This document shows, in pieces, positions 1 to 38,423 of a stretch of DNA of 51,157 nucleotides (the first letter of the stretch is position 1; each line of letters begins with the position of its first letter). The DNA is from a virus (Duplodnaviria; Heunggongvirae; Uroviricota; Caudoviricetes): the IMG/VR virus record IMGVR_UViG_2925877141_000001. The stretch is one strand, 5' to 3'. Under the pieces are notes generated by a model. It was not told the DNA's origin. It worked only from the letters and a program-made list of their open reading frames with translations, and searched no databases. The translations under genes were made by a program, and so were the position numbers.

Positions 1-756
1 ATGCTTAAACAGCATTTAGAACCCATAGAAAAACGAGGTGTCCTTGAAACACTTCGCCGCATCATATCCCGCCTGAATGAAATTTTCCGCTATGCAGCAA
101 CAGAAGAACTCATAGAATTCAACCCGGCAGACAACCTGGGGCAACGGTTCAGCAAGCCAAAAAAACAGAATATGCCAGCATTACCCCCTTCCGAACTCCC
201 TCGCTTCTTGGTTGCTCTAAACAATGCTTCTATCCGTTTGGAAACAAGGCTACTGATTGAGTGGCAACTTCTCACATGGGTTCGCCCAGGTGAAGCTGTT
301 CGCACAAGATGGTCAGATATTGATATTGAAACTGGCATGTGGAACATCCCGGCGGAGTTTATGAAAATGAAGAAGCCTCACAAAGTTCCACTGAGCAAAG
401 AAGCTTTGCGAGTTTTGGATTTAATGAAAGTCATCAGCGGGCATAGAGAGTGGGTGTTCCCCAGTATCAAAGCTCCACTCAATCACATGCATGAACAAAC
501 AGCTAATGCGGCCATAATCCGTATGGGTTTCGGAGGTGAGCTTGTAGCTCACGGTATGCGATCCATTGCTAGAACGGCTGCTGAGGAGTCTGGCAAGTTT
601 AGGACTGATGTCTTAGAAGCCGCCCTTGCCCACTCGAAGAAAGATGAAATAATTGCAGCCTACAATCGTGCAGAGTATCTCACTGAACGGGTGGTTCTCA
701 TGCAATGGTGGAGTGACTATGTTTCGTCTCAAAAATGCAAAGTTATTGCCGCATAA
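1..756 (+). CDS. Tyrosine integrase (P4/CP4-57-like), C-terminal 251 aa; 5' end outside window
   Basis: ORF open from window edge to TAA at 754-756; translation has integrase catalytic-domain hallmarks (VRPGEAVRTRW, AHGMRSIARTAA, AAYNRAEYLTER). Confidence 0.8.
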   Translation: MLKQHLEPIEKRGVLETLRRIISRLNEIFRYAATEELIEFNPADNLGQRFSKPKKQNMPALPPSELPRFLVALNNASIRLETRLLIEWQLLTWVRPGEAVRTRWSDIDIETGMWNIPAEFMKMKKPHKVPLSKEALRVLDLMKVISGHREWVFPSIKAPLNHMHEQTANAAIIRMGFGGELVAHGMRSIARTAAEESGKFRTDVLEAALAHSKKDEIIAAYNRAEYLTERVVLMQWWSDYVSSQKCKVIAA

Positions 757-1038: not shown

Positions 1039-2595
1039 ATGGCTAGCGAAAATGACAAAAATCATAGAGTTAGGGTCGCGCAGTACTTGAGGATGTCTAC
1101 CGACCATCAGCAATATTCTTTACATAATCAGTCCGAATATATCAAAGATTATGCTGAAAAGAACAATATGGAAATCGCTTATACCTACGATGATGCAGGT
1201 AAGAGCGGAGTCAGTATCGTAGGCAGGCATTCTTTGCAGCAGTTACTTAGCGATGTAGAACAAAAGAAAATAGATATACAGGCTGTATTATTTTATGATG
1301 TGAGCCGTTTTGGTCGTTTTCAAAATAGTGATGAAGCGGCATATTATTCCTTTCTATTTGAGAGAAATGGTGTAGATCTTATATATTGTTCCGAACCTAT
1401 ACCCACTAAAGATTTCCCTTTAGAGTCCTCTGTTATACTGAATATAAAAAGATCTAGTGCTGCATATCACAGCAGGAATTTATCTGAAAAGGTATTTATA
1501 GGGCAAGTAAATTTAATAAAGCTTGGTTATCATCAAGGCGGTATGGCTGGTTATGGGCTGAGACGTCTTTTAGTAGACGAAAATGGCATAGCTAAAGAAA
1601 TATTGAGTTTCCGCAAAAGAAAGAGTATTCAAACAGATAGGGTAATATTAATTCCGGGACCAAAAAATGAAATAAAAATTGTAAATAGAATATATGATCT
1701 CTTTATAGATAATAACGTCCCAGAATTCATTATTGCTGAGAGATTAAATGAACAGAACATACCTGCAGAAAATGGAACATTATGGACTCGTGCAAAAATA
1801 CATCAAATTTTGACAAATGAAAAATATATTGGAAACAACATATATAACAAAACCTCATCTAAATTAAAAAGTAGGCTTGTAAAAAACCCCAAACATGAAT
1901 GGGTTAGATGTGACAAGGCATATAAACCTATTATTTCAAAGAAAAAATACAATAAAGCTCAAGAAATAATTCAGCTCCGATCCATTCATTTGACTAATGA
2001 AGATCTATTAGAAAAACTAAAACAAAAATTAGAATCTAATGGAAAACTATCAGGCTTTATCATTGATGAAGATGATACAGGCCCTTCATCTTCTGTTTAT
2101 AGAACCCGATTTGGTGGTCTTTTAAGAGCATATACTTTGATTGGTTATAAGCCAGAACATGATTACAGCTATCTCAAAATAAATGAAGCACTAAGATCAT
2201 TTCACTCAGAGATAATTGAGGATTTTAAGGGTGAAATTTTAAAAAGTAACTGTCATATAGACGAGTATAAATATGCCCCAATGCTTTACATCAATGATGA
2301 GTTTTTAATTTCCGTCCTTGTTACTAAATGCATACATATGAAATCAGGTAAACTTAGATGGAAAGTCCGGTTTGATAACTCACAGAAAGCAGACATAACA
2401 ATTGTTATACGAATGAATTCACAAAATATTTCACCTCTTGATTTTTATATCATACCAAAGATTGAAAACGAATATAATAAAATGTGCATGACGGAAACAA
2501 ACAACATTCGATTAGATCTCTATAGATTTGATAATCTTGATAAACTTCTACAAATTATTACTCGCATGAAAGTGAGGGAACTATATGCTGCCTGA
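1039..2595 (+). CDS. Large serine recombinase-like protein (resolvase catalytic domain + recombinase domain)
   Basis: N-terminal YLRMSTDHQ motif (serine recombinase nucleophile context) and a later recombinase-type segment (HQILTNEKYIGNNIYNK); no clear Cys-rich zinc ribbon; very AT-rich; GAGG upstream of ATG. Confidence 0.7.
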   Translation: MASENDKNHRVRVAQYLRMSTDHQQYSLHNQSEYIKDYAEKNNMEIAYTYDDAGKSGVSIVGRHSLQQLLSDVEQKKIDIQAVLFYDVSRFGRFQNSDEAAYYSFLFERNGVDLIYCSEPIPTKDFPLESSVILNIKRSSAAYHSRNLSEKVFIGQVNLIKLGYHQGGMAGYGLRRLLVDENGIAKEILSFRKRKSIQTDRVILIPGPKNEIKIVNRIYDLFIDNNVPEFIIAERLNEQNIPAENGTLWTRAKIHQILTNEKYIGNNIYNKTSSKLKSRLVKNPKHEWVRCDKAYKPIISKKKYNKAQEIIQLRSIHLTNEDLLEKLKQKLESNGKLSGFIIDEDDTGPSSSVYRTRFGGLLRAYTLIGYKPEHDYSYLKINEALRSFHSEIIEDFKGEILKSNCHIDEYKYAPMLYINDEFLISVLVTKCIHMKSGKLRWKVRFDNSQKADITIVIRMNSQNISPLDFYIIPKIENEYNKMCMTETNNIRLDLYRFDNLDKLLQIITRMKVRELYAA

Positions 2596-3481
2596 AAAAA
2601 ATGAATTCCCAATAATTCAAATTGAGATTGCAAAAATAAAATTTCTTAACCCACGAACAAGAAATAAGTTAGTGCATGAAGAAATAAAGGAAAGCATAAA
2701 AAAAAGAGGATTAAGCAAGCCTATAAGCGTAAGAGCTATTGATGAAGGCGATTTCAAATATGCTTTAATTTGTGGTCAAGGGAGAATAGAGGCTCTCGTT
2801 GCATTAGGTGAAACTATTATTCCAGCAATTATAAGAGATGTATCAGAAGAAGATGCTTACGTTATGAGTTTAGTTGAAAACATTGCAAGGAGAAGACCAC
2901 GTTCTAATGAGTTATTACAGGTGATTAAAGACATGAAAATCAGAGGACTTTCAGACTCCGAAATAAGTGAGATTACTGGATATTCATCGAACTGGGTGAG
3001 CAGTATTAATATGCTACTTGATAAGGGAGAGCATAAACTTCTCTCAGCAGTCGAACGGGGTAATTTGCCTCTGTATCTCGCAGTGCAATTTGCAAGATGT
3101 GAAACTGAGGAAGCACAAGATATTCTTACCGAAGCATATGATAAAAAATTAATAAAAAGTCGGGACATTATAAAGATAAAACACATTCTAAATCAAAGAA
3201 CAGTTGGGAATAAAGGTGCAAAAGCAGCCGGATTTTATTATCACAAACCATCAAAAAGGATGACTGCAGAGGAGTTGATTGAGCTTTATGAAAATAGTAT
3301 CGCTGAACATAAATCTGTTTATAACAACTCAAAATTCATAAAAACCAACCTACTAATAGTAAATGAGATTTTTAACATCATAATGATGAATAAAAGCTTT
3401 CAACATATACTTGAACAAGAGAATCTTTCAGAACTACCATCTCAGATATTAACCCCAGTAAACAAAGAGGTATTAAAATGA
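2585..3481 (+). CDS. ParB/Srx-fold N-terminal domain + HTH protein (ParB-like 1)
   Basis: Overlaps upstream gene by 11 bp; ParB-box-like GQGRIEAL motif followed by HTH-like segment (GLSDSEISEITGYSSNWVSSI). Confidence 0.6.
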   Translation: MLPEKNEFPIIQIEIAKIKFLNPRTRNKLVHEEIKESIKKRGLSKPISVRAIDEGDFKYALICGQGRIEALVALGETIIPAIIRDVSEEDAYVMSLVENIARRRPRSNELLQVIKDMKIRGLSDSEISEITGYSSNWVSSINMLLDKGEHKLLSAVERGNLPLYLAVQFARCETEEAQDILTEAYDKKLIKSRDIIKIKHILNQRTVGNKGAKAAGFYYHKPSKRMTAEELIELYENSIAEHKSVYNNSKFIKTNLLIVNEIFNIIMMNKSFQHILEQENLSELPSQILTPVNKEVLK

Positions 3482-4374
3482 TTCAGATACGTTTTGGCGA
3501 TAATTTTATTTACCTGGAAACTAATAAGTTAATTCCATCTAAGGAATTATTAGAAAACGTAAAGCGAAGCCATAAATATCATCAAATAGTTACCTCTATC
3601 GAAAGCTTAGGTATTATTGAACCAATAATAGTATTCTATGACAAAGATAAAGATGTCACTAAGATACTTGATGGCCATTTAAGGGTTGAGGCTTTAAAAG
3701 ACTTAGGTATAGAAAAAGCTCCATGTATACTTTCGAGCATAGATGATGCTTTCACTCCTAACAAACAAGTGAATCATATAAATGTAGTTGAAGAACATAG
3801 AATGATAATTAAGTCTCTGGCAAAAGTATCAATTGAAAAACTTAGTGCTGCTTTGGGCATATCTGTTGATGCCATAAAAGATAAAGCGAATGTGATGAAC
3901 GGCATAGATCCAAGTGTAATTGCGAAACTTTCTGATAAACCTATACCTAAGGCTACATTTGACATTTTGAGGAAAATGAAGCCAATTCGCCAAATTGAAG
4001 CAGTCGGTACAATGATTAATTTTGATAATTATAGTAAAAAATTTGCAATGAGCATCTTGGATGCAACACCGGCATCGATGATAGTAAATAAAGGGAAAAA
4101 CACTCCCTATAAAAAGGACATAAAAAAAACCATACTTCGTCTGGAACAAGAAATGGCAACAACTTCGGAAGAAACGAAAAAGCTTCAAACCGAGTATGGT
4201 TCAGATATGTTGAAATTCGTTATAATCCAGTCATATATTAATAAATTACTTGGCAATTCTAAAGTTCTTCATTGGTTCTTAGAAAACGAGGTTGATTATC
4301 TTAATGAGTTAAAAAGAATTTCTAGAATAAATTCTTTGGATGATAAGACTCTTACTGAAAACAGCAAGTCATAG
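3478..4374 (+). CDS. ParB/Srx-fold N-terminal domain + HTH protein (ParB-like 2, paralog)
   Basis: ATGA stop/start overlap with upstream gene; DGHLRVEALKDLG motif and HTH-like segment (SIEKLSAALGISVDAIK). Confidence 0.6.
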   Translation: MIQIRFGDNFIYLETNKLIPSKELLENVKRSHKYHQIVTSIESLGIIEPIIVFYDKDKDVTKILDGHLRVEALKDLGIEKAPCILSSIDDAFTPNKQVNHINVVEEHRMIIKSLAKVSIEKLSAALGISVDAIKDKANVMNGIDPSVIAKLSDKPIPKATFDILRKMKPIRQIEAVGTMINFDNYSKKFAMSILDATPASMIVNKGKNTPYKKDIKKTILRLEQEMATTSEETKKLQTEYGSDMLKFVIIQSYINKLLGNSKVLHWFLENEVDYLNELKRISRINSLDDKTLTENSKS

Positions 4375-4688
4375 TCATGTTTTATATAGCCTAAATAAAC
4401 CAAGAAGTATACTTACACAACGACCTTCACGCCGAAGAAGCTGTCAGATACGCCAGCAACCAAAGCATTACGTTTAAGTGTCAGTCATTGATACGAAGGG
4501 ATAACTGCGTATCAGCAGCCGGACATTGAGTCGAATAAAGGCTGGTAGAGAGGGACAGTTCTGTGTCACCGGGAGATTCGTCAGAAACATCAGCGGCAGA
4601 ACAGATGAACCAGCAATTGGTAGTGCACAGAAAACTCTCCAGTATTTAATTATTCAACTTAACACTAAAAAAAATCATGGATTTGCCC

Positions 4689-5528
4689 CTATATTTCCAG
4701 ACATCTGTTATCACTTAACCCATTACAAGCCCGCTGCCGCAGATATTCCCGTGGCGAGCGATAACCCAGCGCACTATGCGGATGCCATTCGTTATAATGC
4801 TCGAACGCCTCTGCAAGGTTCTTTGCTGCCGTTAACCCGTCTGGTTTGGGCATGATACTGATGTAGTCACGCTTTATCGTTTTCACGAAGCTCTCTGCTA
4901 TTCCGTTACTCTCCGGACTCCGCACCGCCGTGTTCTTCGGTTCAAGTCCCAACATCCGGGCGAACTGGCGTGTTTCATTAGCCCGGTAGCATGAACCATT
5001 ATCCGTCAGCCACTCCACTGGAGACGACGGAAGATCGTTGCCGAAGCGGCGTTCCACCGCTCCCAGCATGACGTCCTGTACTGTTTCACTGTTGAAGCCG
5101 CCGGTAGTGACCGCCCAGTGCAGTGCCTCACGATCACAGCAGTCCAGCGCGAACGTGACACGCAGTCTCTCTCCGTTATCACAGCAGAACTCGAACCCGT
5201 CAGAGCACCATCGCTGATTGCTTTCTTTCACGGCCACTCTGCCTGTATGTGCCCGTTTCGATGGCGGTACAGCAGGTTTTCGCTCAAGCAACAGCGCATT
5301 CTGGCGCATGATCCGGTAAACACGTTTGGCATTGATCGCAGGCATACCATCAAGTTCTGCCTGTCTGCGAAGCAGCGCCCATACCCGACGATAACCATAC
5401 GTGGGCAGCTCTCCGATAACATGGTGTATACGGAGAAGCACATCCGTATCATCAGTGTGACGACTGCGGCGGCCATCCATCCAGTCATCGGTTCGTCTGA
5501 GAATGACGTGCAACTGCGCACGCGACAC
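4689..5528 (-). CDS. insD: IS2 orfB (InsD) reading frame, N-terminus apparently disrupted
   Basis: Translation matches InsD from ...[15 protein letters not shown] to ...NRCLEI; canonical upstream start ([13 protein letters not shown]) is not in frame here. Confidence 0.7.
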
Positions 5529-5916
5529 CCGGAGACAACGGCTGACTAAGCTTACTCCCCATCCCGGGCAATAAGGGCGCGTGCGCTATCCACTTTTTTG
5601 CCCGTCCATATTCAACGGCTTCTTTGAGGAGTTCATTTTCCATCGTTTTCTTGCCGAGCAGGCGCTGGAGTTCTTTAATCTGCTTCATGGCGGCAGCAAG
5701 TTCAGAGGCAGGAACAACCTGTTCTCCGGCGGCGACAGCAGTAAGACTTCCTTCCTGGTATTGCTTACGCCAGAGAAATAACTGGCTGGCTGCTACACCA
5801 TGTTGCCGGGCAACGAGGGAGACCGTCATCCCCGGTTCAAAGCTCTGCTGAACAATTGCGATCTTTTCCTGTGTGGTACGCCGTCTGCGTTTCTCCGGCC
5901 CTAAGACATCAATCAT
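5485..5916 (-). CDS. insC: IS2 orfA (InsC), C-terminally extended relative to canonical 121 aa
   Basis: Starts [26 protein letters not shown]; ends ...[11 protein letters not shown]... instead of the remembered ...LLPGDGE stop, suggesting a 1-bp deletion in a G-run. Confidence 0.7.
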
Positions 5917-6007
5917 CTGTTCTCCAATGACTAGTCTAAAAACTAGTATTAAGACTATCACTTATTTAAGTGATATTGGTTGTCTGGAGATTCAGGGGGC
6001 CAGTCTA

Positions 6008-6161: not shown

Positions 6162-6412
6162 AAAAAACTTTCAGGCAGCTAAGGAAAGTTGAACCAGACA
6201 TTAGATGAAATATTTCAACCAATTACAGCACCAATTCAGTCACTGCCAGCCCACCAAATAAATCAAGGGGTTACATGAAAACGTAGCCCCTTTTTCTTTG
6301 GTAGTGACACTAAAATGGATGTAGTGTGAAGAATAATCCCGTTTACTCAATCAATAATACATATTGTTTCAATCTACGTTATTATCTCTTTGTAAAAATT
6401 GCCATTTATTAA

Positions 6413-6783
6413 TCATTGAAAACTGCTTTTAGAACTTGATACAACGGGACTAGTCACAACAGGACTATTCTCAACGGGATCATCCTCAGAGGAACTATCA
6501 TCAAAGTCATCATCCATAAATAAAATATCATCGAATGGTGCCACGCCCGTGATGAGTTTTATTTTATTATTACGATCAGTCAATACTCCACTTAAACCGT
6601 TTTCGCTCACAGGTTTTAATGATTTTTCATTACTCTTGTTGTAAGCAGGCGCATTAAAAATACACGGAGTATCAACATCAAACAATGACGTTCCCCAGTT
6701 CACATATTGAATATCATAGTTACTGAAGTTCTGTCCAGAAAAGAAGCACCCCTTAAAATCCAATCCACGTAAATTATATAAAC
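6413..6783 (-). pseudogene. 3' fragment of an unknown gene (pentapeptide-repeat-like N-terminal part, acidic Ser/Asp-rich tail), 5' end removed by IS3
   Basis: ORF runs without a start into the IS3 terminus at 6784; AT-rich. Confidence 0.4.
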
Positions 6784-6813
6784 TGATCCTACCCACGTAA
6801 TATGGACACAGGC

Positions 6814-7680
6814 CTAAGCGAGGTTCTTGTTTTCAAATTGTTCCGGACTGAGGCCGCCACACCAACTGTGCCGCCGCCACCGATTGTAATCACATTCGAT
6901 ATAATTAAACACCGTTGCCCGCATTATTTCCCGGCTGATAAAGTGTTCTCCATGGATACATTCCACTTTCAGCGAATGAAAGAAGCTTTCCACGCAGGCA
7001 TTATCGTAGCAGCAACCTTTTGCGCTCATACTTCCACGCAGATTATGCCGCTTCAGTTGCGCCTGATAATCTGCTGAACAGTACTGGCCTCCACGGTCCG
7101 TGTGAACGATAACGTTCCGGGGCCTCTTACGCCGCCACAGCGCCATCTGCAGGGCATCGCAGGCCAGTTGCGCCGTCATGCGTGGCGACATTGACCAGCC
7201 AATAACGGCACGTGACCACAGGTCAATGACCACTGCCAGATACAGCCAGCCTTCATCTGTACGTAAGTACGTGATGTCTCCTGCCCACTTCTGGTTCGGG
7301 CCACTGGCGTAAAAATCCTGCTCCAACAGATTTTCTGACACAGGCAGGCCGTGTGCGCGGTAGCTGACCGGGCTGAACTTCCGGGAGGCCTTTGCCCTCA
7401 GTCCCTGACGGCGCAGGCTTGCCGCCACGGTTTTTACGTTAAAGGGGTAACCCTGAGCACGCAGTTCATCCGTCAGGCGTGGGGCACCGTAACGCTGTTT
7501 TGACCGGGTAAAAGCCGCGAGGACAACGCTGTCGCAGTGTTGGCGGAACTGCTGACGCGTGCTTATCCTTGTCCGCCGCTGACACCACGTATACCAGCCG
7601 CTGCGGGCCACCCGGAGCACGCGGCACATTGCTTTGATGCTGAACTCAGCCTGATGTTTTTCAATAAAGACATACTTCAT
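6814..7680 (-). CDS. insF: IS3 transposase orfB (InsF)
   Basis: 288-aa translation [22 protein letters not shown]...EQFENKNLA recognised as IS3 InsF with DDE region. Confidence 0.85.
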
Positions 7681-7976
7681 TTCAGGCGCTTCGCGAAGTA
7701 TGTCGCGGCCTTTTGGAGGATAGCCAGCTCTTCATCCCGTTCTGCCAGCTGGCGTTTGAGACGTGCAATCTCGGTAGACATCTCCAGTTCACGTTCAGAA
7801 GACGTCTGCTGATTTTGCTGTTTACTGCGCCAGTTGTAGAGTTGTGATTCATACAGGCTGAGTTCACGGGCTGCGGCAGTAACACCGATGCGTTCAGCAA
7901 GCTTCAGGGCTTCACTGCGAAATTCAGGCGAATGCTGTTTACGGGGTTTTTTACTGGTTGATACTGTTTTTGTCAT
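7677..7976 (-). CDS. insE: IS3 transposase orfA (InsE)
   Basis: [31 protein letters not shown]... recognised as IS3 InsE; overlaps orfB in the usual frameshift arrangement. Confidence 0.8.
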
Positions 7977-8041
7977 GTGAGTCACCTCTGACTGAGAGTT
8001 TACTCACTTAGCCGCGTGTCCACTATTGCTGGGTAAGATCA

Positions 8042-8237
8042 AGGTTCCTAAGCTCACCTTAGTTCGCTTTTTGGTCACAGGCACTGCATATCTGAAATAC
8101 CAATTTTTCTTCCCTCCCTTCGCCAGGGGAGCGATTCGCAACAGCAAACCATCGCCGTCAAAAAGGTTAACCTCTTTTTCGGCAGGTTTGGTGCTTTTGA
8201 TTTCAGTGTCAGTGAGCTTCTTAGCGATTTTGGCCAT
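8042..8237 (-). pseudogene. P4/CP4-57-type integrase N-terminal fragment (~65 aa) truncated by IS3
   Basis: MAKIAKKLTDTEIKSTKPAEKEVNLFDGDGLLLRIAPLAKGGKKNWYFRYAVPVTKKRTK looks like an integrase arm-binding N-terminus; reading frame runs into the IS3 end at 8041; N-terminus lies ~170 bp from the att repeat. Confidence 0.65.
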
Positions 8238-8403
8238 GTTTGGGACCCTCGATTTTAGGACCCATCTTCGTGGGTCCCATTCAGGGTGCCATAACTCGTA
8301 GTTCTCAGCAATTCTCACTAGACTACAATAGACGTAAAAAAGCCCGCAGAGCTTGTGCTGTGCGGGCTTAGTAGACTTTACTGAACTTCAGTACATCAAT
8401 ATT

Positions 8404-8430
8404 TGGTGGAGCTGGCGGGAGTTGAACCCG
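8404..8430. repeat. 27-bp direct repeat of the ssrA 3' end (att core; prophage attL)
   Basis: TGGTGGAGCTGGCGGGAGTTGAACCCG is identical to 50756-50782 at the 3' end of ssrA. Confidence 0.85.
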
Positions 8431-8508
8431 AGTCCGTATTTTTATAATTAGCTGAAATAAAACGATTAATACTAACCATTTTATTCTGCGGATCTTTTGC
8501 GGCTCCTT

Positions 8509-9408
8509 TTATGTCTGGATGTGGTCGTCAACACATCCTCTTTTAAATACAGGCGCTTTTACCTTAGTTGGATCATCTGTTTTAAAGATTTTCAATCGTT
8601 CACTGAAGAACATTACCTCAGATCCTTTGTACCGATCTTGAGCACTGTAGTTTATTCCATATACTAATGAGGATGTCTTATACATAGCTTGGATCTCAGG
8701 AGTGTTATCGTAAGAAACAATCCAAGGCGTTTTAATATTATTCTGTACGACTTTTGCAACCCTAACATGATCATCATGATCATAATGGTTGATATATAAG
8801 CCTTTACCTTTTATGTAATAAGGTGGATCCAAATAGGTTAATGAGTTTTGTGGCAATTGAATAACTATTTTTTTTATGAAATCAATTGCATCCATGTTAT
8901 ATAAATCTATTCTGTGACGATTTTCTGATATTCTATGGATTCGAGAAATCAAATCACTCTTATTATAGCGAGCGTCAAGCTTCCATTTCCCTTCTTGATT
9001 TTTACCGCCAATTACACCACCTTTTAATATTCCAGAACGATTTGTTCTATTGAGAAAAAAGGTTGAGAAACCAATTGTTAAAAGATCATGGTCTTTAGGA
9101 TTATTAATTATATCTTTCTGCCTAAACCATTCATCCATTGTAACTTCTGTTCTTTCAACTAAAGAACATAATTGATCTGCATGATTTAATACACTGTGCC
9201 AAAAAGCATAAACAGAAATATTAATATCATTAAGGATGATTTTTTCAGCTGCATTTAGATGTAACAGTTTCAATGCTAAACCAGCACCCCCAGCATATGG
9301 TTCGGCATAATGTATAGGCGAAAGATTATTTTCTTCAATAATCCGAAGCATGAAATTTGCAAGCTTGCCTTTACCGCCAGGATAGCGAAGTGGGGTGTTA
9401 AAACGCAT
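8509..9408 (-). CDS. Dam-family (D12 class) N6-adenine DNA methyltransferase
   Basis: Motifs LRYPGGK, EPYAGGAG and DPPY in the translation; ATG at 9408; AT-rich. Confidence 0.8.
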   Translation of the reverse strand: MRFNTPLRYPGGKGKLANFMLRIIEENNLSPIHYAEPYAGGAGLALKLLHLNAAEKIILNDINISVYAFWHSVLNHADQLCSLVERTEVTMDEWFRQKDIINNPKDHDLLTIGFSTFFLNRTNRSGILKGGVIGGKNQEGKWKLDARYNKSDLISRIHRISENRHRIDLYNMDAIDFIKKIVIQLPQNSLTYLDPPYYIKGKGLYINHYDHDDHVRVAKVVQNNIKTPWIVSYDNTPEIQAMYKTSSLVYGINYSAQDRYKGSEVMFFSERLKIFKTDDPTKVKAPVFKRGCVDDHIQT

Positions 9409-9442
9409 ATGATACCTCTAAATGTCAGATCTAAAGTATATC

Positions 9443-9477
9443 AAAAAAAGGGCTTTATGGCCATCACATAAAACCCC
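9443..9477 (-). terminator. Possible intrinsic terminator between ATPase and methyltransferase genes
   Basis: Minus-strand hairpin GGGTTTTA...TAAAGCCC followed by a run of 7 T. Confidence 0.4.
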
Positions 9478-9487
9478 TTTTAATCAA

Positions 9488-11221
9488 TTAGTTATCTGAC
9501 AGATATGATGAGATGGTAGCAGAATCGACACCATGTCCACTTATCATAATAACTTTAAGACTCTTTATTAGTTCATTCTTGAAGCTATCCGATTGCACAG
9601 GATTTTTCTCGACCCAATATCGATATGGGTTATCTTTAACTCGTCCTTTGACTTGGTCCTGAAATTGAGTCGTATGTGCAAAATCTTTAAACAGTTTTCT
9701 CACTCTCCCGCCATGATTTTTGTTAACTTTTTTATAATTATCTATAAGGATTTTTAAATCAATCGGAGCGTTACCAATCTTTAGCGTTGTAATTATGTCT
9801 TTAGCTGTTTTCATAAAAACAGATTTTGTAAATTTATTTTTATTTTCCCAATATGCATCATCAGGTGGTAAATTATATAAAAACTCAAAAATCATTTGAT
9901 CTGGAGGTAAGGTGCTTGGAAGCAAACATAAGTTTTTTTCTTTTTTGGCTTTTTTTGCATTAGCACTGTTGTCGTGAACAACATCACCGTCTAAGACGAT
10001 CAAGCTTTTAGCTGTAAATTCTGGTATTTTTCTTGCCATTAAGTCAAGCATGGCAGAGCAGCTAATATTTATATTCCCTAATGGATTTAATATTTTATTT
10101 ATTTTTCGATCTGTTATCAATTGTTTGAAAAAGTCGAAACCTTCTTTGTCTTCAAAATATACATTTGCTTTTGGAAGACAAATGTCATCATTAATTTTTA
10201 CAGTTTCAACATGTAAATCAGCGTGGATATCTGTCCATGAAAGATTATTCTTTGTTTTAATATCTCCATATGTGTCTGTAAGATATATTGTTTTAAAGCT
10301 ATCACTATCTTGTTTTGAACGATTATAGATATCCTCTATTATTAATGGAGAGTGCGAGGTCATGATTATTTGCAGATCGTATTGTTTTGCTGCTTTAGTT
10401 AGAATATTAATTAACTCTAACTGTGCAGCAGGGAAAAGACCTGCATCGGCTTCATCAATTAACAATATTCCGCCATGATAATCAGAATAAGTTTCCTTCA
10501 ATCTTTTAAATGAAAAAATTGCTTGGATTAATTGTCCAACATTATCTTCACCAACAGATACTGATTGGTGATCATAATTGTCACCATGGACAACCATTGA
10601 ATCGATAATACCTTTTGTTGCTGTTACTGAGCTTCCATTGTTTTTTAGTAAGAGTTGGTTACTCATCATTCTGATTTCATCAGAATTTTCATTGATGTAC
10701 TGAACATCCCGTGTTGAGTAATTAGTCCTTAATGTAATAGGAAGAAGTCGTGCTAAGCTTAAAAAAATAACAGGATGAGTAACGTTTCTACTTTGGTTTT
10801 TTTCCGGTATTGAATCATTTCCCCTGACTACAGGCCTTGATTTATCTCTGTCACTGTAGCTGTATAAACCTAATGTTAGTTTTTCAAGATGTTTGTTCGA
10901 TGCACCATCATAGACACTAATTTTGACGTCCATTGAACCAGGAACATCAAATTGTTCTGAAAGCCTAAAATGTTCGCTGAAAGCTGACTTGAAGCTGCCA
11001 TTTGTTAATGTTTTATATTGTGTTAAATCAGTCTCAGGTTTTTTGGTAAAGTCCTTTGTAAAGCTAAATATTTGGGCGATAATGCCAAGAATTGTGGATT
11101 TAGATGTGCCATTTTTACCACAAATAACAGTTAGGCGAGAACCAAACTCGATGTTTATATTTTTCAGTCCGCGAAACTTCACAACATTTATATTTTTTAG
11201 TTTGGTAATTTGATTTGCCAT
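9488..11221 (-). CDS. ABC-type (AAA_15/OLD-like) ATPase with putative C-terminal Toprim-like nuclease region
   Basis: Walker A GKNGTSKST, Walker B LLIDEADAGLF, H-loop-like TSHSP; C-terminal FEDKEG and LIVLDGD segments resemble Toprim Glu and DxD motifs (unverified); alternative ATG at 11272. Confidence 0.65.
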   Translation of the reverse strand: MANQITKLKNINVVKFRGLKNINIEFGSRLTVICGKNGTSKSTILGIIAQIFSFTKDFTKKPETDLTQYKTLTNGSFKSAFSEHFRLSEQFDVPGSMDVKISVYDGASNKHLEKLTLGLYSYSDRDKSRPVVRGNDSIPEKNQSRNVTHPVIFLSLARLLPITLRTNYSTRDVQYINENSDEIRMMSNQLLLKNNGSSVTATKGIIDSMVVHGDNYDHQSVSVGEDNVGQLIQAIFSFKRLKETYSDYHGGILLIDEADAGLFPAAQLELINILTKAAKQYDLQIIMTSHSPLIIEDIYNRSKQDSDSFKTIYLTDTYGDIKTKNNLSWTDIHADLHVETVKINDDICLPKANVYFEDKEGFDFFKQLITDRKINKILNPLGNINISCSAMLDLMARKIPEFTAKSLIVLDGDVVHDNSANAKKAKKEKNLCLLPSTLPPDQMIFEFLYNLPPDDAYWENKNKFTKSVFMKTAKDIITTLKIGNAPIDLKILIDNYKKVNKNHGGRVRKLFKDFAHTTQFQDQVKGRVKDNPYRYWVEKNPVQSDSFKNELIKSLKVIMISGHGVDSATISSYLSDN

Positions 11222-11237
11222 GTTTGTATCTTGCTCC

Positions 11238-11262
11238 GTAAAATGGCCACAAATTGTGGCCA
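11238..11262 (-). terminator. Hairpin immediately downstream of int (tI/sib-like position)
   Basis: Palindrome TGGCCACA-AAT-TGTGGCCA at 11244-11262 followed on the minus strand by TTTT. Confidence 0.45.
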
Positions 11263-11279
11263 ATAGTTTCATGCTTGGA

Positions 11280-12446
11280 TTATATTGTTATCTTCTTCAA
11301 GCTTGTTTGTCCATCATATTCCTTCAGATATGAGCCATAGTGCCTGAAAAGCATCTCCGGTCCTTTATGCCCCATTTGAGCTGCAAGCCAAAACAGGTTT
11401 GCTCCCCGGCTGATATGGCGGGTGGCGAATGTATGCCTAGTTTGATATGGATTTCTGTAACGAATACCTGCTTTTCGCAATGTTGGCACCCATGCTTTTT
11501 TTCTGATTGCATCAGCACTTGCCCATGGCTTATTGGTCTTTGGATCTTCAAAGACAGTAGCATCCTTCATGAATGTAAATGGCTTCTGGTTTATCAACGC
11601 CAACATTGCTTCTTCAGTCAGTTCAACTTTACGGGTACCGGCTTTTGTCTTTGTTCCTTTGATAACTCCGACAACACTTGCGCTCTGAACATGGGCTGTT
11701 TTTCCAACAAAGTCGATATCATGCCATCGTAGGGCACATAATTCAGAACTACGCAGGCCTGTATGTATGGCGAACCGGAACAGATTTTCCCATTGTTTGT
11801 TTCCGGCTGCTGCTAGTAATGCATCAACTTCTGCTGGTGATAGCGGATCAACCACATAGCTGCTTTCTGCTTCTGACTTATCACTTTGGTAGCGCGAAGC
11901 TGTTACTAACGATACGGGGTTAATTTGAAATACCCCATCGGTCACGGCTTCATCAAGTGCTGACCGTAGGAAAGATAACTGGTTGCGAATGGTTTTTAAG
12001 GTTGTTTTCTGGCTTTGAATCCACGCTTTCAGGGTTGCTGGTGTTAATTCACTTGCAGGGCAAATGTGAAGTGAGGCTAACGCACTACGGCATTTTTTAT
12101 AGCCACCAATCGTAGAGGGTGAAAGTTTTCTTGTTTCGCAGATTTCAAGATATTCGTCCAGGTACATCTTTACCGTTTTGCCTGCAGCAGCATTACCAAA
12201 AATTTTCAAACGAGCAGAACGGGGAAAATATTCTGCATAAATGAATGTTCCCCTTTCGATCTTATTATGGATTTCGCCGAGTGTACGCTCGGCGTATTTA
12301 ATGTTCTTTGGTGTTACTTCCAGATTGGAAAGCGGCTCACGACATCTAACTCCTTTGTAGGTGAAAGTTATATTGATCGTTTCTCCCTGGCGGTGTTTCC
12401 TGATTGTTACGCCGCGCGGTAGTTTGAGCAGTTTTGTCTGGCCCAT
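11280..12446 (-). CDS. int: Phage tyrosine integrase
   Basis: 388-aa ORF with integrase C-terminal catalytic segments (HTGLRSSELCALRW, HTFATRHISRGANLFWLAAQMGH, RHYGSY); overlaps the upstream xis-like ORF. Confidence 0.85.
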   Translation of the reverse strand: MGQTKLLKLPRGVTIRKHRQGETINITFTYKGVRCREPLSNLEVTPKNIKYAERTLGEIHNKIERGTFIYAEYFPRSARLKIFGNAAAGKTVKMYLDEYLEICETRKLSPSTIGGYKKCRSALASLHICPASELTPATLKAWIQSQKTTLKTIRNQLSFLRSALDEAVTDGVFQINPVSLVTASRYQSDKSEAESSYVVDPLSPAEVDALLAAAGNKQWENLFRFAIHTGLRSSELCALRWHDIDFVGKTAHVQSASVVGVIKGTKTKAGTRKVELTEEAMLALINQKPFTFMKDATVFEDPKTNKPWASADAIRKKAWVPTLRKAGIRYRNPYQTRHTFATRHISRGANLFWLAAQMGHKGPEMLFRHYGSYLKEYDGQTSLKKITI

Positions 12447-12625
12447 TTTGCAACCTCACTAAGATCAATCCACCTCTCCTTAACGCCTTCAACCTTTAAA
12501 ACCTGAACACCTTCACGCCAAACACCGCGCTGTACACGTTTGTTTATTGCTTCAGGAGTTTCGCCAGTTTCTTTGCAATAAGTTGAGATAGGAACACAAT
12601 CGAGGTTCAGCATACGTTTCTCCAT
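12407..12625 (-). CDS. xis: Excisionase-like small DNA-binding protein
   Basis: Small ORF directly upstream of and overlapping int, as for lambda xis/int; start ambiguous (12625 or 12613). Confidence 0.5.
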   Translation of the reverse strand: MEKRMLNLDCVPISTYCKETGETPEAINKRVQRGVWREGVQVLKVEGVKERWIDLSEVAKWARQNCSNYRAA

Positions 12626-12654
12626 TATCCCGTCTGCACACGGGAGCAACATTA

Positions 12655-32838: not shown

Positions 32839-33171
32839 ATGACGAGCAAAGAAACCTTTACCCATTACCAGCCGCTGGGCAACAGTGACCCGGCACATAC
32901 GGCAACCGCGCCCGGCGGATTGAGTGCGAAAGCGCCTGCAATGACCCCGCTGATGCTGGACACCTCCACCCGTAAGCTGGTTGCGTGGGATGGCACCACC
33001 GACGGTACTGCCGTTGGCATTCTGGCGGTTGATGCTGACCAGACCAGCACCACGCTGACGTTCTACAAGTCCGGCACGTTCCGTTATGAGGATGTGCTCT
33101 GGCCGGAGGCTGCCAGCGACGAGACGAAAAAACGGACCGCGTTTGCCGGAACGGCAATCAGCATCGTTTAA
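32839..33171 (+). CDS. D: Head decoration protein D
   Basis: [41 protein letters not shown]... recognised as lambda D. Confidence 0.9.
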
Positions 33172-33226
33172 CCTTACCCTTCATCACTAAAGGCCGCCTG
33201 TGCGGCTTTTTTTACGGGATTTTTTT

Positions 33227-34252
33227 ATGTCGATGTACACAACCGCCCAGCTGCTGGCGGCAAATGAGAAGAAATTTAAGTTTGATCCGCTGTTTCTGCG
33301 TCTCTTTTTCCGTGAGAGCTATCCCTTCACCACGGAGAAAGTCTATCTCTCACAAATTCCGGGACTGGTAAACATGGCGCTGTACGTTTCGCCGATTGTT
33401 TCCGGTGAGGTTATCCGCTCCCGTGGCGGCTCCACCTCTGAATTTACACCGGGATATGTCAAGCCGAAGCATGAGGTGAATCCGCAGATGACCCTGCGTC
33501 GCCTGCCGGATGAAGATCCGCAGAATCTGGCGGACCCGGCTTACCGCCGCCGTCGCATCATCATGCAGAACATGCGAGACGAAGAGCTGGCCATTGCTCA
33601 GGTCGAAGAGATGCAGGCAGTTTCTGCTGTGCTTAAGGGCAAATACACCATGACCGGTGAAGCCTTCGATCCGGTTGAGGTGGATATGGGCCGCAGTGCG
33701 GCGAACAACATCACACAGTCCGGTGGTACGGAGTGGAGCAAGCGTGACAAGTCCACGTATGACCCGACCGACGATATCGAAGCCTATGCGCTGAACGCCA
33801 GCGGAGTGGTGAATATCATCGTGTTTGATCCGAAAGGCTGGGCGCTGTTCCGTTCCTTCAAAGCCGTCAAGGAGAAGCTGGATACCCGTCGCGGCTCTAA
33901 TTCCGAGCTGGAGACAGCGGTAAAAGACCTGGGCGAAGCGGTGTCCTATAAGGGGATGTATGGCGATACGGCGATCGTCGTGTATTCCGGACAGTACGTG
34001 GAAAACGACGTCAAAAAGAACTTCCTTCCGGACAACACGATGGTGCTGGGGAACACTCAGGCACGCGGTCTGCGCACCTATGGCTGCATTCAGGATGCGG
34101 ACGCACAGCGCGAAGGTATTAACGCCTCTGCTCGCTACCCGAAAAACTGGGTGACCACCGGCGATCCGGCGCGTGAGTTCACCATGATTCAGTCAGCACC
34201 GCTGATGCTGCTGGCTGACCCTGATGCGTTCGTGTCCGTACAACTGGCGTAA
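33227..34252 (+). CDS. E: Major capsid protein E
   Basis: MSMYTTAQLLAANEKKFKFDPLFLRLFFRESYPF... recognised as lambda E. Confidence 0.95.
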   Translation: MSMYTTAQLLAANEKKFKFDPLFLRLFFRESYPFTTEKVYLSQIPGLVNMALYVSPIVSGEVIRSRGGSTSEFTPGYVKPKHEVNPQMTLRRLPDEDPQNLADPAYRRRRIIMQNMRDEELAIAQVEEMQAVSAVLKGKYTMTGEAFDPVEVDMGRSAANNITQSGGTEWSKRDKSTYDPTDDIEAYALNASGVVNIIVFDPKGWALFRSFKAVKEKLDTRRGSNSELETAVKDLGEAVSYKGMYGDTAIVVYSGQYVENDVKKNFLPDNTMVLGNTQARGLRTYGCIQDADAQREGINASARYPKNWVTTGDPAREFTMIQSAPLMLLADPDAFVSVQLA

Positions 34253-34293
34253 TCATGGCCCTTCGGGGCCATTTTCTCTCTGTGGAGGAGTCT

Positions 34294-34689
34294 ATGACGA
34301 AAGATGAACTGATTGCCCGTCTTCAGGTGCTGGGTGAGCAACTGAACCGTGATGTCAGCCTGACGGGGACGAAAGAAGAACTGGTGCTCCGTGTGGCAGA
34401 GCTGGAAGAGGAGCTTGATGACACGGATGACGCTGCCGGTCAGGACACATCTGTCAGCCCGGAAAATGCGCTGACCGGACATGAAAATGAGGTTGTATCA
34501 GCGCAGCCGGATACCGTGACTGATACGGCTGATCTGGTCACGGTTGTGGCACTGGTGACGCTGCATACTGATGCACTTCACGCCACGCGGGATGAGGCTG
34601 TGGCATTTGTGCTGCCGGGAACGGCGTTTCGTGTCTCTGCCGGTGTGGCAGCTGAAATGACAGAGCGCGGCCTGGCCAGAATGCAATAA
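34294..34689 (+). CDS. FI: DNA packaging protein FI
   Basis: MTKDELIARLQVLGEQLNRDVSLTGTKEEL... recognised as lambda FI. Confidence 0.85.
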   Translation: MTKDELIARLQVLGEQLNRDVSLTGTKEELVLRVAELEEELDDTDDAAGQDTSVSPENALTGHENEVVSAQPDTVTDTADLVTVVALVTLHTDALHATRDEAVAFVLPGTAFRVSAGVAAEMTERGLARMQ

Positions 34690-34700
34690 CGGGAGGCGCT

Positions 34701-35054
34701 GTGGCTGATTTCGATAACCTGTTCGATGCTGCCATTGCCTGCGCCGATGAAACGATACGCGGGTACATGGGAACGTCAGCCACCATGACATCCGGTGAGC
34801 AGTCCGGTGCTGTGATACGTGGTGTTTTTGATGACCCTGAAAATATCAGCTATGCCGGACAGGGCGTGCGCGTTGAAGGCTCCAGCCCGTCCCTGTTTGT
34901 CCGGACTGATGATGTGCGGCAGCTGCGGCGCGGCGACACGCTGACCATCGGTGAGGAAAACTTCTGGATAGACCGGATTTCGCCGGATGATGGCGGAAGC
35001 TGTCATCTCTGGCTTGGGCGGGGCGTACCGCCTGCCGTTAACCGTCGCCGCTGA
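34701..35054 (+). CDS. FII: Head completion protein FII
   Basis: MADFDNLFDAAIACADETIRGYMGTSATMTSGEQSG... recognised as lambda FII. Confidence 0.9.
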   Translation: MADFDNLFDAAIACADETIRGYMGTSATMTSGEQSGAVIRGVFDDPENISYAGQGVRVEGSSPSLFVRTDDVRQLRRGDTLTIGEENFWIDRISPDDGGSCHLWLGRGVPPAVNRRR

Positions 35055-35065
35055 AAGGGGGATGA

Positions 35066-35644
35066 ATGGCCATAAAAGGTCTTGAGCAGGCCGTTGAAAA
35101 CCTCAGCCGTATCAGCAGAACGGCGGTGCCCGGTGCCGCCGCAATGGCCATTAACCGCGTTGCGTCATCCGCGATATCGCAGTCGGCGTCACAGGTTGCC
35201 CGTGAGACAAAGGTACGCCGGAAACTGGTAAAGGAAAGGGCCAGGCTGAAAAGGGCCACGGTCAAAAATCCGCAGGCCAGAATCAAAGTTAACCGGGGGG
35301 ATTTGCCCGTAATCAAGCTGGGTAATGCGCGGGTTGTCCTTTCGCGCCGCAGGCGTCATAAAAAGGGGCAGCGTTCATCCCTGAAAGGTGGCGGCAGCGT
35401 GCTTGTGGTGGGTAACCGTCGTATTCCCGGCGCGTTTATTCAGCAACTGAAAAATGGCCGGTGGCATGTCATGCAGCGTGTGGCCGGGAAAAACCGTTAC
35501 CCCATTGATGTGGTGAAAATCCCGATGGCGGTGCCGCTGACCACGGCGTTTAAACAAAATATTGAGCGGATACGGCGTGAACGTCTTCCGAAAGAGCTGG
35601 GCTATGCGCTGCAGCATCAACTGAGGATGGTAATAAAGCGATGA
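35066..35644 (+). CDS. Z: Tail completion protein Z
   Basis: MAIKGLEQAVENLSRISRTAVPGAAAMAINRVASS... recognised as lambda Z. Confidence 0.9.
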   Translation: MAIKGLEQAVENLSRISRTAVPGAAAMAINRVASSAISQSASQVARETKVRRKLVKERARLKRATVKNPQARIKVNRGDLPVIKLGNARVVLSRRRRHKKGQRSSLKGGGSVLVVGNRRIPGAFIQQLKNGRWHVMQRVAGKNRYPIDVVKIPMAVPLTTAFKQNIERIRRERLPKELGYALQHQLRMVIKR

Positions 35645-36036
35645 AACATACTGAACTCCGTGCAGCCGTACTGGATGCACTGGAGAAGCATGACACCGGG
35701 GCGACGCTTTTTGATGGTCGCCCCGCTGTTTTTGATGAGGAAGATTTTCCGGCAATTGCCGTTTATCTCACCGGCGCTGAATACACGGGCGAAGAGCTGG
35801 ACAGCGATACCTGGCAGGCGGAGCTGCATATTGAAGTTTTCCTGCCTGCTCAGGTGCCGGATTCAGAGCTGGATTCGTGGATGGAGTCCCGGATTTATCC
35901 GGTGATGAGCGATATCCCGGCGCTGTCAGATTTGATCACCAGTATGGTGGCCAGTGGCTATAACTACCGGCGCGACGATGATGCGGGCCTGTGGAGTTCA
36001 GCCGATCTGACGTATGTCATTACCTATGAAATGTGA
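35641..36036 (+). CDS. U: Tail terminator protein U
   Basis: [45 protein letters not shown]... recognised as lambda U. Confidence 0.9.
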
Positions 36037-36043
36037 GGACGCT

Positions 36044-37075
36044 ATGCCTGTACCAAATCCTACAATGCCGGTGAAAGGTGCCGGGACCACCCTGTTGGTT
36101 TATAAGGGGAGCGGTGACCCTTATGCGAATCCGCTTTCAGACGTTGACTGGTCGCGTCTGGCAAAAGTTAAAGACCTGACGCCCGGCGAACTGACCGCTG
36201 AGTCCTATGACGACAGCTATCTCGATGATGAAAATGCGGACTGGACTGCGACCGGGCAGGGGCAGAAATCTGCCGGAGATACCAGCTTCACGCTGGCGTG
36301 GATGCCCGGAGAGCAGGGGCAGCAGGCGCTGCTGGCGTGGTTTAATAAAGGGGATACCCGTGCCTATAAAATCCGCTTCCCGAACGGCACGGTCGATGTG
36401 TTCCGCGGCTGGGTCAGCAGTATCGGTAAGGCGGTGACGGCGAAGGAAGTGATCACCCGCACGGTGAAAGTCACCAACGTGGGACGTCCGTCGATGGCAG
36501 AAGATCGCAGCACGGTAACAGCGGCAACCGGCATGACCGTGACGCCTGCCAGCACTTCGGTGGTGAAAGGGCGGAGCATCACGCTGACCGTGGCATTCCA
36601 GCCGGAAGGCGCAACCGACAAGAGCTTCCGTGCGGTGTCTGCGGATAAAACAAAAGCCACCGTGTCGGTCAGTGGTATGACCATCACCGTGAAAGGTGTT
36701 GCTGCAGGCAAGGTCAACATTCCGGTTGTATCCGGTAATGGTGAACTTGCTGTGGTTGCAGGAATCACCGTCAGCCGCTGGCGCATTGAGCAGTGCAGCG
36801 AACTGAGCGCGGTGAGTGCCTCCTTTGTACTGTCCACGCCGACGGAAACGGATGGCGCTGTTTTTCCGGGACGTATCATGCTGGCCAACACCTGCACCTG
36901 GACCTATCGCGGTGACGAGTGCGGTTATAGCGGTCCGGCTGTCGCGGATGAATATGACCAGCCAACGTCCGATATCACGAAGGATAAATGCAGCAAATGC
37001 CTGAGCGGTTGTAAGTTCCGCAATAACGTCGGCAACTTTGGCGGCTTCCTTTCCATTAACAAACTTTCGCAGTAA
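36044..37075 (+). pseudogene. In-frame fusion of major tail protein V (N-terminal ~240 aa) to the C-terminal ~100 aa of tail-tip protein L
   Basis: [16 protein letters not shown]...VVAGITV (V-like) continues directly into [54 protein letters not shown]...FLSINKLSQ (L C-terminus); no G, T, H or M between U and K. Confidence 0.8.
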
Positions 37076-37080
37076 ATCCC

Positions 37081-37824
37081 ATGACACAGACAGAATCAGC
37101 GATTCTGGCGCACGCCCGGCGATGTGCGCCAGCGGAGTCGTGCGGCTTCGTGGTAAGCACGCCGGAGGGGGAAAGATATTTTCCCTGCGTGAATATTTCC
37201 GGTGAGCCGGAGGCGTATTTCCGTATGTCGCCGGAAGACTGGCTGCAGGCAGAAATGCAGGGTGAGATTGTGGCGCTGGTCCACAGCCACCCCGGTGGTC
37301 TGCCCTGGCTGAGTGAGGCCGACCGGCGGCTGCAGGTGCAGAGTGATTTGCCGTGGTGGCTGGTCTGCCGGGGAGTGATTCATAAGTTCCGCTGTGTGCC
37401 GCATCTCACCGGGCGGCGTTTTGAGCACGGGGTGACAGACTGTTATACGCTGTTCCGCGATGCCTATCATCTTGCAGGTATCGATTTGCCGGATTTTTAC
37501 CGACATGATGACTGGTGGAAATCAGGTCAGAATCTCTATCTGGATAATCTGGAGGCCACAGGGCTGTATCAGGTGCCGTTGTCATCAGCACAACCGGGCG
37601 ATGTGCTGCTGTGCTGTTTTGGTTCATCAGTGCCGAATCACGCCGCAATTTACTGCGGCGACGGCGAGCTGCTGCACCATATTCCTGAACAACTGAGCAA
37701 ACGAGAGAGGTACACCGACAAATGGCAGCGACGCACACACTCCCTCTGGCGTCACCAGGCATGGCACGCATCTGCCTTTACGGGGATTTACAACGATTTG
37801 TCCGCCGCATCGATCTGCGTGTGA
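37081..37824 (+). CDS. K: Tail-tip assembly protein K
   Basis: MTQTESAILAHARRCAPAESCGFVVSTPEGERYFPCVNISGEPEAY... recognised as lambda K; 3' end overlaps I in another frame. Confidence 0.85.
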   Translation: MTQTESAILAHARRCAPAESCGFVVSTPEGERYFPCVNISGEPEAYFRMSPEDWLQAEMQGEIVALVHSHPGGLPWLSEADRRLQVQSDLPWWLVCRGVIHKFRCVPHLTGRRFEHGVTDCYTLFRDAYHLAGIDLPDFYRHDDWWKSGQNLYLDNLEATGLYQVPLSSAQPGDVLLCCFGSSVPNHAAIYCGDGELLHHIPEQLSKRERYTDKWQRRTHSLWRHQAWHASAFTGIYNDLSAASICV

Positions 37825-38363
37825 AAACGGGGGCCGAAGCCATCCGGGCGCTGGCCATGCAGATCCCGGCGTTTCGTCAGAAGCTGAGCGACGGCTGGTA
37901 TCAGGTACGCATTGCCGGGCGTGATACAGGTGAAACGGAATTATCAGCCCGTCTTAATGAACCGCTGGCAAATGGTGCTGTGATCCATATCGTGCCGCGT
38001 CTGGCAGGAGCCAAAAGTGGCGGTGTGTTTCAGGCTGTGCTGGGGGCGGCTGTTATGGCGGTTGCTATATGGATGCCGGGGGTAGGAATTATGGCGAGTA
38101 ATCTGCTGTTTTCTCTCGGTGCCAGTATGACGCTTGGCGGTGTTGCACAGATGCTGGCCCCTAAACCCAAAACCCCCCGCACACAGACAACGGATAACGG
38201 CAAACAGAACACCTATTTTTCTTCACTGGATAATATGGTTGCCCAGGGCAATGTTCTGCCCGTTCTGTACGGTGAAATGCGCGTGGGATCACGTGTGGTA
38301 TCTCAGGAGATCAGCACAGCAGATGAAGGTGACGGTGGTCAGGTTGTGGTGATTGGTCGCTGA
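37722..38363 (+). CDS. I: Tail-tip assembly protein I
   Basis: MAATHTLPLASPGMARICLYGDLQRF... recognised as lambda I. Confidence 0.85.
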   Translation: MAATHTLPLASPGMARICLYGDLQRFVRRIDLRVKTGAEAIRALAMQIPAFRQKLSDGWYQVRIAGRDTGETELSARLNEPLANGAVIHIVPRLAGAKSGGVFQAVLGAAVMAVAIWMPGVGIMASNLLFSLGASMTLGGVAQMLAPKPKTPRTQTTDNGKQNTYFSSLDNMVAQGNVLPVLYGEMRVGSRVVSQEISTADEGDGGQVVVIGR

Positions 38364-38423
38364 TGCAAAACGTTTTATGTGAAACCGCCTCCGGGCGGTT
38401 TTATCGTTTATGGAGCATGACGA

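Follow-up and report, generated by a model that had tools for sequence, protein, structure and literature searches.

A lambda-like prophage probably inserted between ssrA and a resident P4-type island, with a displaced 27-bp att core between the two elements

The tmRNA gene ssrA lies near one end of the 51,157-nucleotide stretch of viral DNA analyzed here (IMG/VR virus record IMGVR_UViG_2925877141_000001; hereafter, the window), and a copy of its 3′ end lies at the other side of a lambda-like prophage, next to a broken P4-type integrase gene. This arrangement raises the question of which element the displaced copy belongs to, and of whether the prophage or the island was there first. An earlier note on this DNA had proposed that the copy is an attachment repeat, and that the prophage had inserted into the ssrA-proximal att of a pre-existing island. 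Searching the window for the 27-mer TGGTGGAGCTGGCGGGAGTTGAACCCG returned exact copies at 8404-8430 and 50756-50782, both on the plus strand and hence in direct repeat; with up to three mismatches allowed, the copies are still two only, while 0.00 are expected from 100 dinucleotide-preserving shuffles. The repeat claimed in the earlier note is thus exact, unique in the window and above chance, and a search of the window for extra att copies, with ≤3 mismatches or ≤5 edits, gave only the two cores and short matches at chance level. Past the 27 bp, similarity extends on the left by ATT and on the right through GTCCG after a single mismatch (A at 8431 versus C at 50783).

The proximal copy is the end of a full-length ssrA (Rfam RF00023, 295.8 bits, model positions 1-374 of 374), in agreement with ARAGORN, which predicts the tag peptide ANDENYALAA. 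Read in the RNA sense, the repeat is CGGG-TTCAACT-CCCGC-CAGCTCC-ACCA, of which CGGG-TTCAACT-CCCG forms a perfect dyad with a 7-nt spacer. Based on textbook tmRNA structure and the sequence, we take it to comprise four of the five bases of one T-stem strand, the T-loop, the other T-stem strand, the 3′ acceptor strand and the terminal ACCA. The island integrase, whose N terminus had been placed ~170 bp from the distal copy, indeed has its start codon at 8237 on the minus strand, 166 bp away (Table 1).

Table 1. Coordinates of the features in the window and the basis on which each was assigned.
Feature	Position	Strand	Basis
Island P4-type integrase, C-terminal part (aa 159-409), displaced and inverted	1-756	+	Pfam Phage_int_M + Phage_integrase
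Large serine recombinase (island cargo)	1039-2595	+	Pfam Resolvase + Recombinase
ParB/RepB-like gene (island cargo)	2585-3481	+	Pfam ParB_N + RepB
ParB/RepB-like gene (island cargo)	3478-4374	+	Pfam ParB_N + RepB
IS2 copy (boundaries approximate)	4677-6007	-	Pfam HTH_Tnp_1, rve ORFs; IS2 transposase annotated at EcPNK006 equivalent
Relic att tattTGGTGG-GCTGGCa, P4-type attR-like, 1-nt deletion	6244-6260	-	Adjoins ypjC fragment; match 16/17 nt
ypjC C-terminal fragment (DUF5508, positions 141-263 of 263)	6413-6796	-	Pfam
IS3 (1,258 bp) inside island integrase	6784-8041	-	Pfam HTH_Tnp_1, rve ORFs; EcPNK006 annotation
Island P4-type integrase, N-terminal 196 nt (65 codons)	8042-8237	-	Arm-DNA-bind_3
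Terminator-like hairpin, island flank	8340-8369	-	Terminator scan; directly downstream of ssrA in EcPNK006
Distal att core, displaced ssrA 3′ end; island flank / core / P′ arm junction	8404-8430	+	Repeat search
Phage P′ arm of attP	8431-8508		Diverges from ssrA from position 28; partly conserved in LLS
D12-class N6-adenine methyltransferase	8509-9408	-	Pfam MethyltransfD12; PADLOC PD-Lambda-5_B E=1e-123
ABC/OLD-like ATPase	9488-11272	-	Pfam AAA_15/AAA_21; PADLOC best: PtuA/GajA/AriA/ATPase-Toprim models
Tyrosine integrase	11280-12446	-	Pfam Arm-DNA-bind_2 + Phage_integrase; PHROG integrase
Excisionase	ORF 12407-12652	-	PHROG excisionase
Lambda-like prophage body	12653-46412		PHROG
PD-T4-3-like GIY-YIG protein	46665-47438	-	PADLOC PD-T4-3 E=8e-140; Pfam LEM-3_GIY-YIG
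EcoRII-type C5 methylase	47803-49278	+	PADLOC MTase_II; Pfam DNA_methylase
EcoRII-type endonuclease	49313-50527	-	PADLOC REase_II; Pfam EcoRII-N, EcoRII-C
Phage P arm of attP (~155 bp)	50600-50755		~89% identical to LLS attP arm; homologous in PhiNP
Proximal att core = last 27 bp of ssrA	50756-50782	in - strand ssrA	Repeat search
Intact ssrA (tmRNA gene)	50756-51118	-	ARAGORN; Rfam RF00023

We compared the window with EcPNK006, a prophage-free E. coli in which the same island, both IS elements included, lies directly against ssrA. The EcPNK006 locus corresponds to the left flank of the window (2000/2000), one core and the ssrA side of the window (375/375), while the wrong, phage-side arm combinations are 30-35% identical to it, which is background. 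When one repeat copy and the intervening sequence (42,352 bp) are removed from the window, the ssrA/island junction of EcPNK006 is recreated base for base; comparison with prophage-free strains was one of the checks that the earlier note had proposed. Moreover, the ssrA gene of the window is identical to that of EcPNK006, showing that the target gene was regenerated intact. The repeat is also kept in related prophage-bearing genomes, as 042, MY1-8 and Res13 all carry the distal copy, which in the window doubles as the ssrA-proximal att of the island. These results support the identification of 8404-8430 as the att duplication of the prophage, separating it from the disabled P4-type island integrase. 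We put at about 90% the probability that the window is a tandem array of ssrA, a complete-looking 42.35-kb lambda-like prophage, a displaced 27-bp copy and an older P4-type island. For annotation, the value of the comparison is that the exact prophage boundaries are fixed (8404/8431 to 50755/50782, 42,352 bp), that ssrA is shown to be intact, and that the “orphan” integrase fragment turns out to be half of an IS3-split, inverted gene.

Joining the right end of the prophage, the core and the left end yields an attP that is collinear with the attP of the free phage LLS and with the att region of Citrobacter phage PhiNP; at the matching position, the depositors of the LLS record annotated a “tmRNA pseudogene” and attP. 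The conserved block takes in the core together with ~150 bp of P arm and ~45 bp of P′ arm, with cargo on either side that differs between phages, and the P′ arm of the window (8431-8508) is identical in 042 and MY1-8. The prophage integrase carries the N-terminal Arm-DNA-bind_2 domain (DUF3596) and a tyrosine-recombinase catalytic domain (Pfam), and shares 92.8% amino acid identity over 388 aa with the Int of PhiNP, 87% with a Klebsiella phage Int and 86% with LLS Int. Read by eye from the alignment to the Tn916 Int structure 6en0, the catalytic motifs (R, K, H/Y-x-x-R, H, Y) fall in TGLRSSE, YQTRHT, MGH and RHYG, all of which are also found in LLS Int. Judging from its sequence, in which the catalytic residues are present, the prophage appears to carry an ssrA-targeting tyrosine integrase of the PhiNP/LLS type. 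Taken together, the empty site in EcPNK006, the attP collinear with LLS and PhiNP and the PhiNP-like Int support the insertion of the prophage at the ssrA-proximal att of the island.

The PhiNP-type integrase/att pair is already characterised experimentally. The att site of PhiNP, TGGTGGAGCTGGCGGGAGTTGAACC, was mapped to the ssrA 3′ end in several K-12 lysogens with the use of random-primed PCR and Sanger sequencing (Magaziner et al. 2019, PMC6456863), and it equals the first 25 bp of the 27-bp repeat. PhiNP has also been shown to excise precisely and circularise, and to form K-12 lysogens at ssrA (Petty et al. 2011, PMC3072379). Given that K-12 has the P4-type island CP4-57 directly behind ssrA (PMC10107115), the PhiNP lysogens of K-12 are experimental versions of the same tandem array. 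PhiNP resembles the window prophage in its att core, its P-arm homology and the order xis-int-ATPase-methyltransferase-att, but it has been described as a myovirus and has another virion module, whereas the window holds a lambda-type siphovirus genome; in addition, its identity with ssrA ends at 25 bp, compared with 27 in the window, and its P-arm terminator differs. LLS, a free temperate Escherichia phage (PQ299149), shares the order attP-cargo-int-xis and an attP collinear with the joined ends of the window, the ~150-bp P arm and the core included. It differs in having a single 272-aa gene, with no function assigned, between att and int, and in its right-end cargo; its identity with ssrA runs for 29 bp and then continues with mismatches.

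We propose that the phage entered between ssrA and the resident island when its Int recombined attP with the ssrA 3′ end. In doing so, it would supply an identical new ssrA 3′ end together with a new terminator, which would explain why ssrA stays intact, while the original 3′ end would be shifted 42 kb away, still attached to the island. The crossover would take place within the 25-27 bp common to attP and attB; its likely position, the T-loop, and the arm-type sites are deduced from the sequence and from the usual behaviour of tyrosine recombinases. In a terminator scan, a hairpin in the P arm (50605-50628, minus strand) is found to follow ssrA now, and the hairpin of the island flank (8340-8369) would terminate ssrA in the prophage-free configuration.

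The phage and the island each bring a terminator of their own to ssrA. Between the P-arm hairpin and its chromosomal counterpart, a pair in the stem has changed in a compensatory way (GCCCGC/GCGGGC versus GCCCAC/GTGGGC). Each attP arm contains one copy of an 11-nt direct repeat, GCGGCTCCTTT (8499-8509 and 50645-50655), and the P′ arm of PhiNP has a similar motif. As an arm-type Int site, it is a weak candidate and did not convince us; it overlaps terminator-like sequence and is the sole 11-nt repeat found.

The island integrase had been described in the earlier note as truncated. It is P4-type and disabled, as claimed, but not merely truncated: it is split by IS3, and codons 159-409 lie at 1-756 on the plus strand, so that the window starts inside the C-terminal part. 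Over 251 aa, this part matches the intact 409-aa integrase of E. coli 042 at 100% identity, and the N-terminal part (8042-8237, minus strand) is identical to it at 65/65 aa and collinear with the intact gene for exactly 196 nt. Arm-DNA-bind_3, Phage_int_M and Phage_integrase domains are all recognized on the intact 042 orthologue, and in EcPNK006 the gene adjoins ssrA. Both halves have the 3-bp CCT target duplication, and each borders a different end of IS3. A second gene, ypjC, was likewise cut by IS3: in EcPNK006 (L007 16129-19429), a second, inverted IS3 is adjoined by the distal integrase part, and the N-terminal part of ypjC also adjoins the second IS3. The recombinase and ParB genes (1039-4374) lie inside the inverted segment, while in 042 they have the opposite orientation, directly behind the intact integrase. 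A likely history is that one IS3 entered int after nt 196 and another entered ypjC, and that recombination between the two inverted the segment between them. The island is immobile, its integrase being cut by IS3 and the distal part flipped. The terminal sequence starting near 6007 is presumably the IS2 terminus. The IS3-split integrase together with the prophage junction, exactly as in the window, was absent from the complete-genome collection, where the best matches cover 82% of the query.

CP4-57 of K-12 is comparable in that its P4-type integrase lies immediately downstream of ssrA and is transcribed in the same direction. The island of the window differs in its cargo, a serine recombinase and two ParB-like genes, and in the disruption of its integrase by IS3 and the inversion; a switch of the CP4-57 type, in which excision is coupled to ssrA mutation, is therefore not expected. 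The position relative to the phage differs as well, the island being distal to the phage in the window whereas CP4-57 in K-12 is proximal to a phage-type relic.

Within the inverted segment, beside the ypjC fragment, we found the relic att of Table 1, which resembles CP4-57 attR with its adjoining interior sequence, as well as the published form CGCCAGC-CCACCA (PMC10107115, Table 1); its 1-nt deletion is typical of P4-type attR sites. It is now inverted, and would have been in direct orientation with ssrA before the IS3 inversion. In K-12, attR reads TGGTGG-GCTGGCGG, followed by island DNA. The relic and its flanks are identical in K-12 MG1655, and the match alone is statistically non-significant; considered as a further att copy, 6244-6260 is kept as a relic only, given that K-12 shares the site and its flanks. 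An island-free ypjC-ssrA junction occurs in none of the 5,426 complete genomes. P4-type islands would duplicate only about the last 14 nt of ssrA, so the far end of the island should lack the T-arm part of the phage core, and the phage would therefore enter only at the true ssrA end. The locus shows, in a clean natural case, how the stacking order at the tmRNA hotspot is set by nested att cores.

Several lines of evidence point to the island as the older resident. The junction between island integrase and ssrA is found in 964 of 5,426 complete genomes, BL21(DE3) included, and the junction of island integrase, att and methyltransferase in 20, while 411 genomes have the phage int gene and 84 the entire att-to-xis module. 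What adjoins this prophage att end varies between strains: the intact 409-aa island integrase in 042, a different island integrase in MY1-8, and ypjA, with no island, in Res13. In addition, the window and EcPNK006, which is free of the prophage, have an identical IS3/IS2 rearrangement of the island. That the island pre-existed, as the earlier note held, is carried by this population and parsimony evidence, the map being the same under either order. Prophage-free relatives could in principle result from precise excision instead of never having had the prophage.

Under the reverse order, in which the lambda-like prophage came first and the P4-type island later entered the displaced distal ssrA 3′-end copy, that copy would have offered a suitable target, as it contains the whole ~14-nt P4-type core GCCAGCTCCACCA; besides the identical final map, the elements of K-12 are layered the other way round, CP4-57 lying between ssrA and a P-arm relic of phage type, and both orders thus occur in nature. 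We nonetheless regard this order as very unlikely at the present locus: the window and EcPNK006 share the same IS3 insertion and inversion, with 2000/2000 identity in the flank, genomes with the island/ssrA junction outnumber those with the island/prophage junction about 50-fold (964 versus 20), and the same prophage end stands beside several unrelated neighbours. Less probable still is an import of the whole locus, prophage and flanks together, through transduction or conjugation followed by homologous recombination, the donor being a strain in which the tandem array was already present. Over the att-to-xis segment, the window is 100% identical to MY1-8, whose neighbouring island differs, and the ssrA region is a known hotspot for recombination and mobile elements (PMC3603311), both of which would fit an import; yet the flanks match those of the prophage-free relative up to the 27-bp core, as site-specific insertion predicts, so the breakpoints would have to fall exactly at the core, and even then the array would originally have been made by integrase-mediated insertion. 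That 8404-8430 is only the island's own att, P4-type islands carrying an ssrA 3′-end copy beside their integrase, or else a chance match or assembly artefact with the prophage boundaries elsewhere, can practically be dismissed, since in the prophage-free strain the “copy” is the ssrA end itself, the sequence right of 8430 is a phage P′ arm common to 042, MY1-8, LLS and PhiNP, and zero chance matches are expected.

Read as an island first and a prophage second, the window is an ordinary instance of tandem integration at ssrA, which is already known. The Islander database lists 125 tandem arrays, with the tmRNA gene as the most enriched target (PMC4383910), and the tmRNA site of E. coli is a hotspot for many prophage types and other mobile elements (PMC3603311). 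Islander tandem arrays are built like the window, with elements in series downstream of one tDNA and separated by 3′ fragments in direct orientation. As Islander defines such arrays, every member must have an integrase and a tDNA fragment of its own; the prophage has both, while the integrase of the island is split and its fragment is a relic at best. Current understanding is left unchanged by the locus, as tandem ssrA arrays and the PhiNP-type integrase/att pair have both been described.

A separate question concerns the origin of the P arm. Between the phage P arm (50600-50755) and the ypjA-ssrA spacer found in island-free E. coli, identity is ~93-97% (loci compared: window 50600-50755; L004 3850-4000; L009 ~330-480; L012 4996-5155). 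This spacer of ~155 bp, which includes the ssrA terminator, directly abuts ssrA in 2,568/5,426 complete genomes, and in K-12 the same sequence lies between ypjA and the attR of CP4-57. Scanning Enterobacterales for the P-arm motif gave 19 loci, of which at least 11, in other species, directly follow ssrA, and phage tail-fibre or invertase genes are recognisable near only three. Either the ypjA-ssrA spacer is a fossil left by an ssrA phage of the PhiNP/LLS type, whose right arm (P arm) it would represent, or the phage captured the host flank. We entertain the former tentatively, at somewhat below even odds; it is partly supported by the conservation of the P arm in PhiNP. The “attP-like” junction of Res13 and the K-12 P-arm relic point to an earlier prophage as a hypothesis only, not as proof, as the same sequence is the common spacer of the 2,568 genomes. 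If the spacer were a fossil arm, what passes for the “native” 3′ flank and terminator of ssrA in the species would be leftover phage cargo, and so, probably, would the autotransporter ypjA/EhaD and the relic of the pinH invertase; practically all E. coli ssrA genes would be occupied sites, on which two integrase families would have stacked alternately on nested cores (~14 nt in the P4 type and 25-27 nt in the phage type).

The prophage integrase lies 2,849 bp from att, with exactly two ORFs in between (8509-9408 and 9488-11272), in line with the ~2.8 kb and two cargo genes noted earlier. PhiNP has the same methyltransferase and ATPase module in the same place, with 86% amino acid identity for the ATPase and a methyltransferase ORF that is unannotated in its record (L010 6538-7419). 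Given that PhiNP is a functional phage with the same layout, the 2.85-kb gap between int and att is a working layout rather than decay. The PD-lambda-5 defence system, reportedly described by Vassallo and colleagues in 2022, is said to consist of components A and B. The methyltransferase matches the PD-Lambda-5_B model (Table 1), and PD-Lambda-5_A was not among the best 25 PADLOC hits of the ATPase. The pair (8509-11272) may represent a variant compact restriction or abortive-infection module. Between att and int, the window, 042, MY1-8 and PhiNP carry the methyltransferase and ATPase, LLS and Res13 one 272-aa gene, and PMV-1 three genes, one with a STAS-like domain (loci compared: L003 5212-6027; L004 4045-4863; L005 4102-5972; window 8509-11272). 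From these gene contents, the slot behaves like a cargo hotspot.

PHROG families in the prophage body include a CI-like repressor and proteins of replication, lysis, terminase, portal, major head, major tail, J and the side tail fibre. The late region, from terminase through the tail genes, with the H tape-measure listed among them, is ~97% identical in nucleotides to lambda and to induced ECOR phages. With lambda-type late genes and a CI-type repressor, the prophage is lambda-like (a lambdoid siphovirus). The right-end cargo (46665-50527) follows the side tail fibre and abuts ssrA, and its EcoRII-type pair is complete. Both prophage ends thus bear restriction or defence cargo, the methyltransferase and ATPase at one end and the PD-T4-3-like protein and EcoRII-type system at the other. 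A 417-aa ORF (23604-24857, plus strand) matches only phrog_6841, a family of unknown function. The genome is mosaic, with an int/xis/att module (11280-12652) common to PhiNP and late genes (27803-46412) ~97% identical to lambda.
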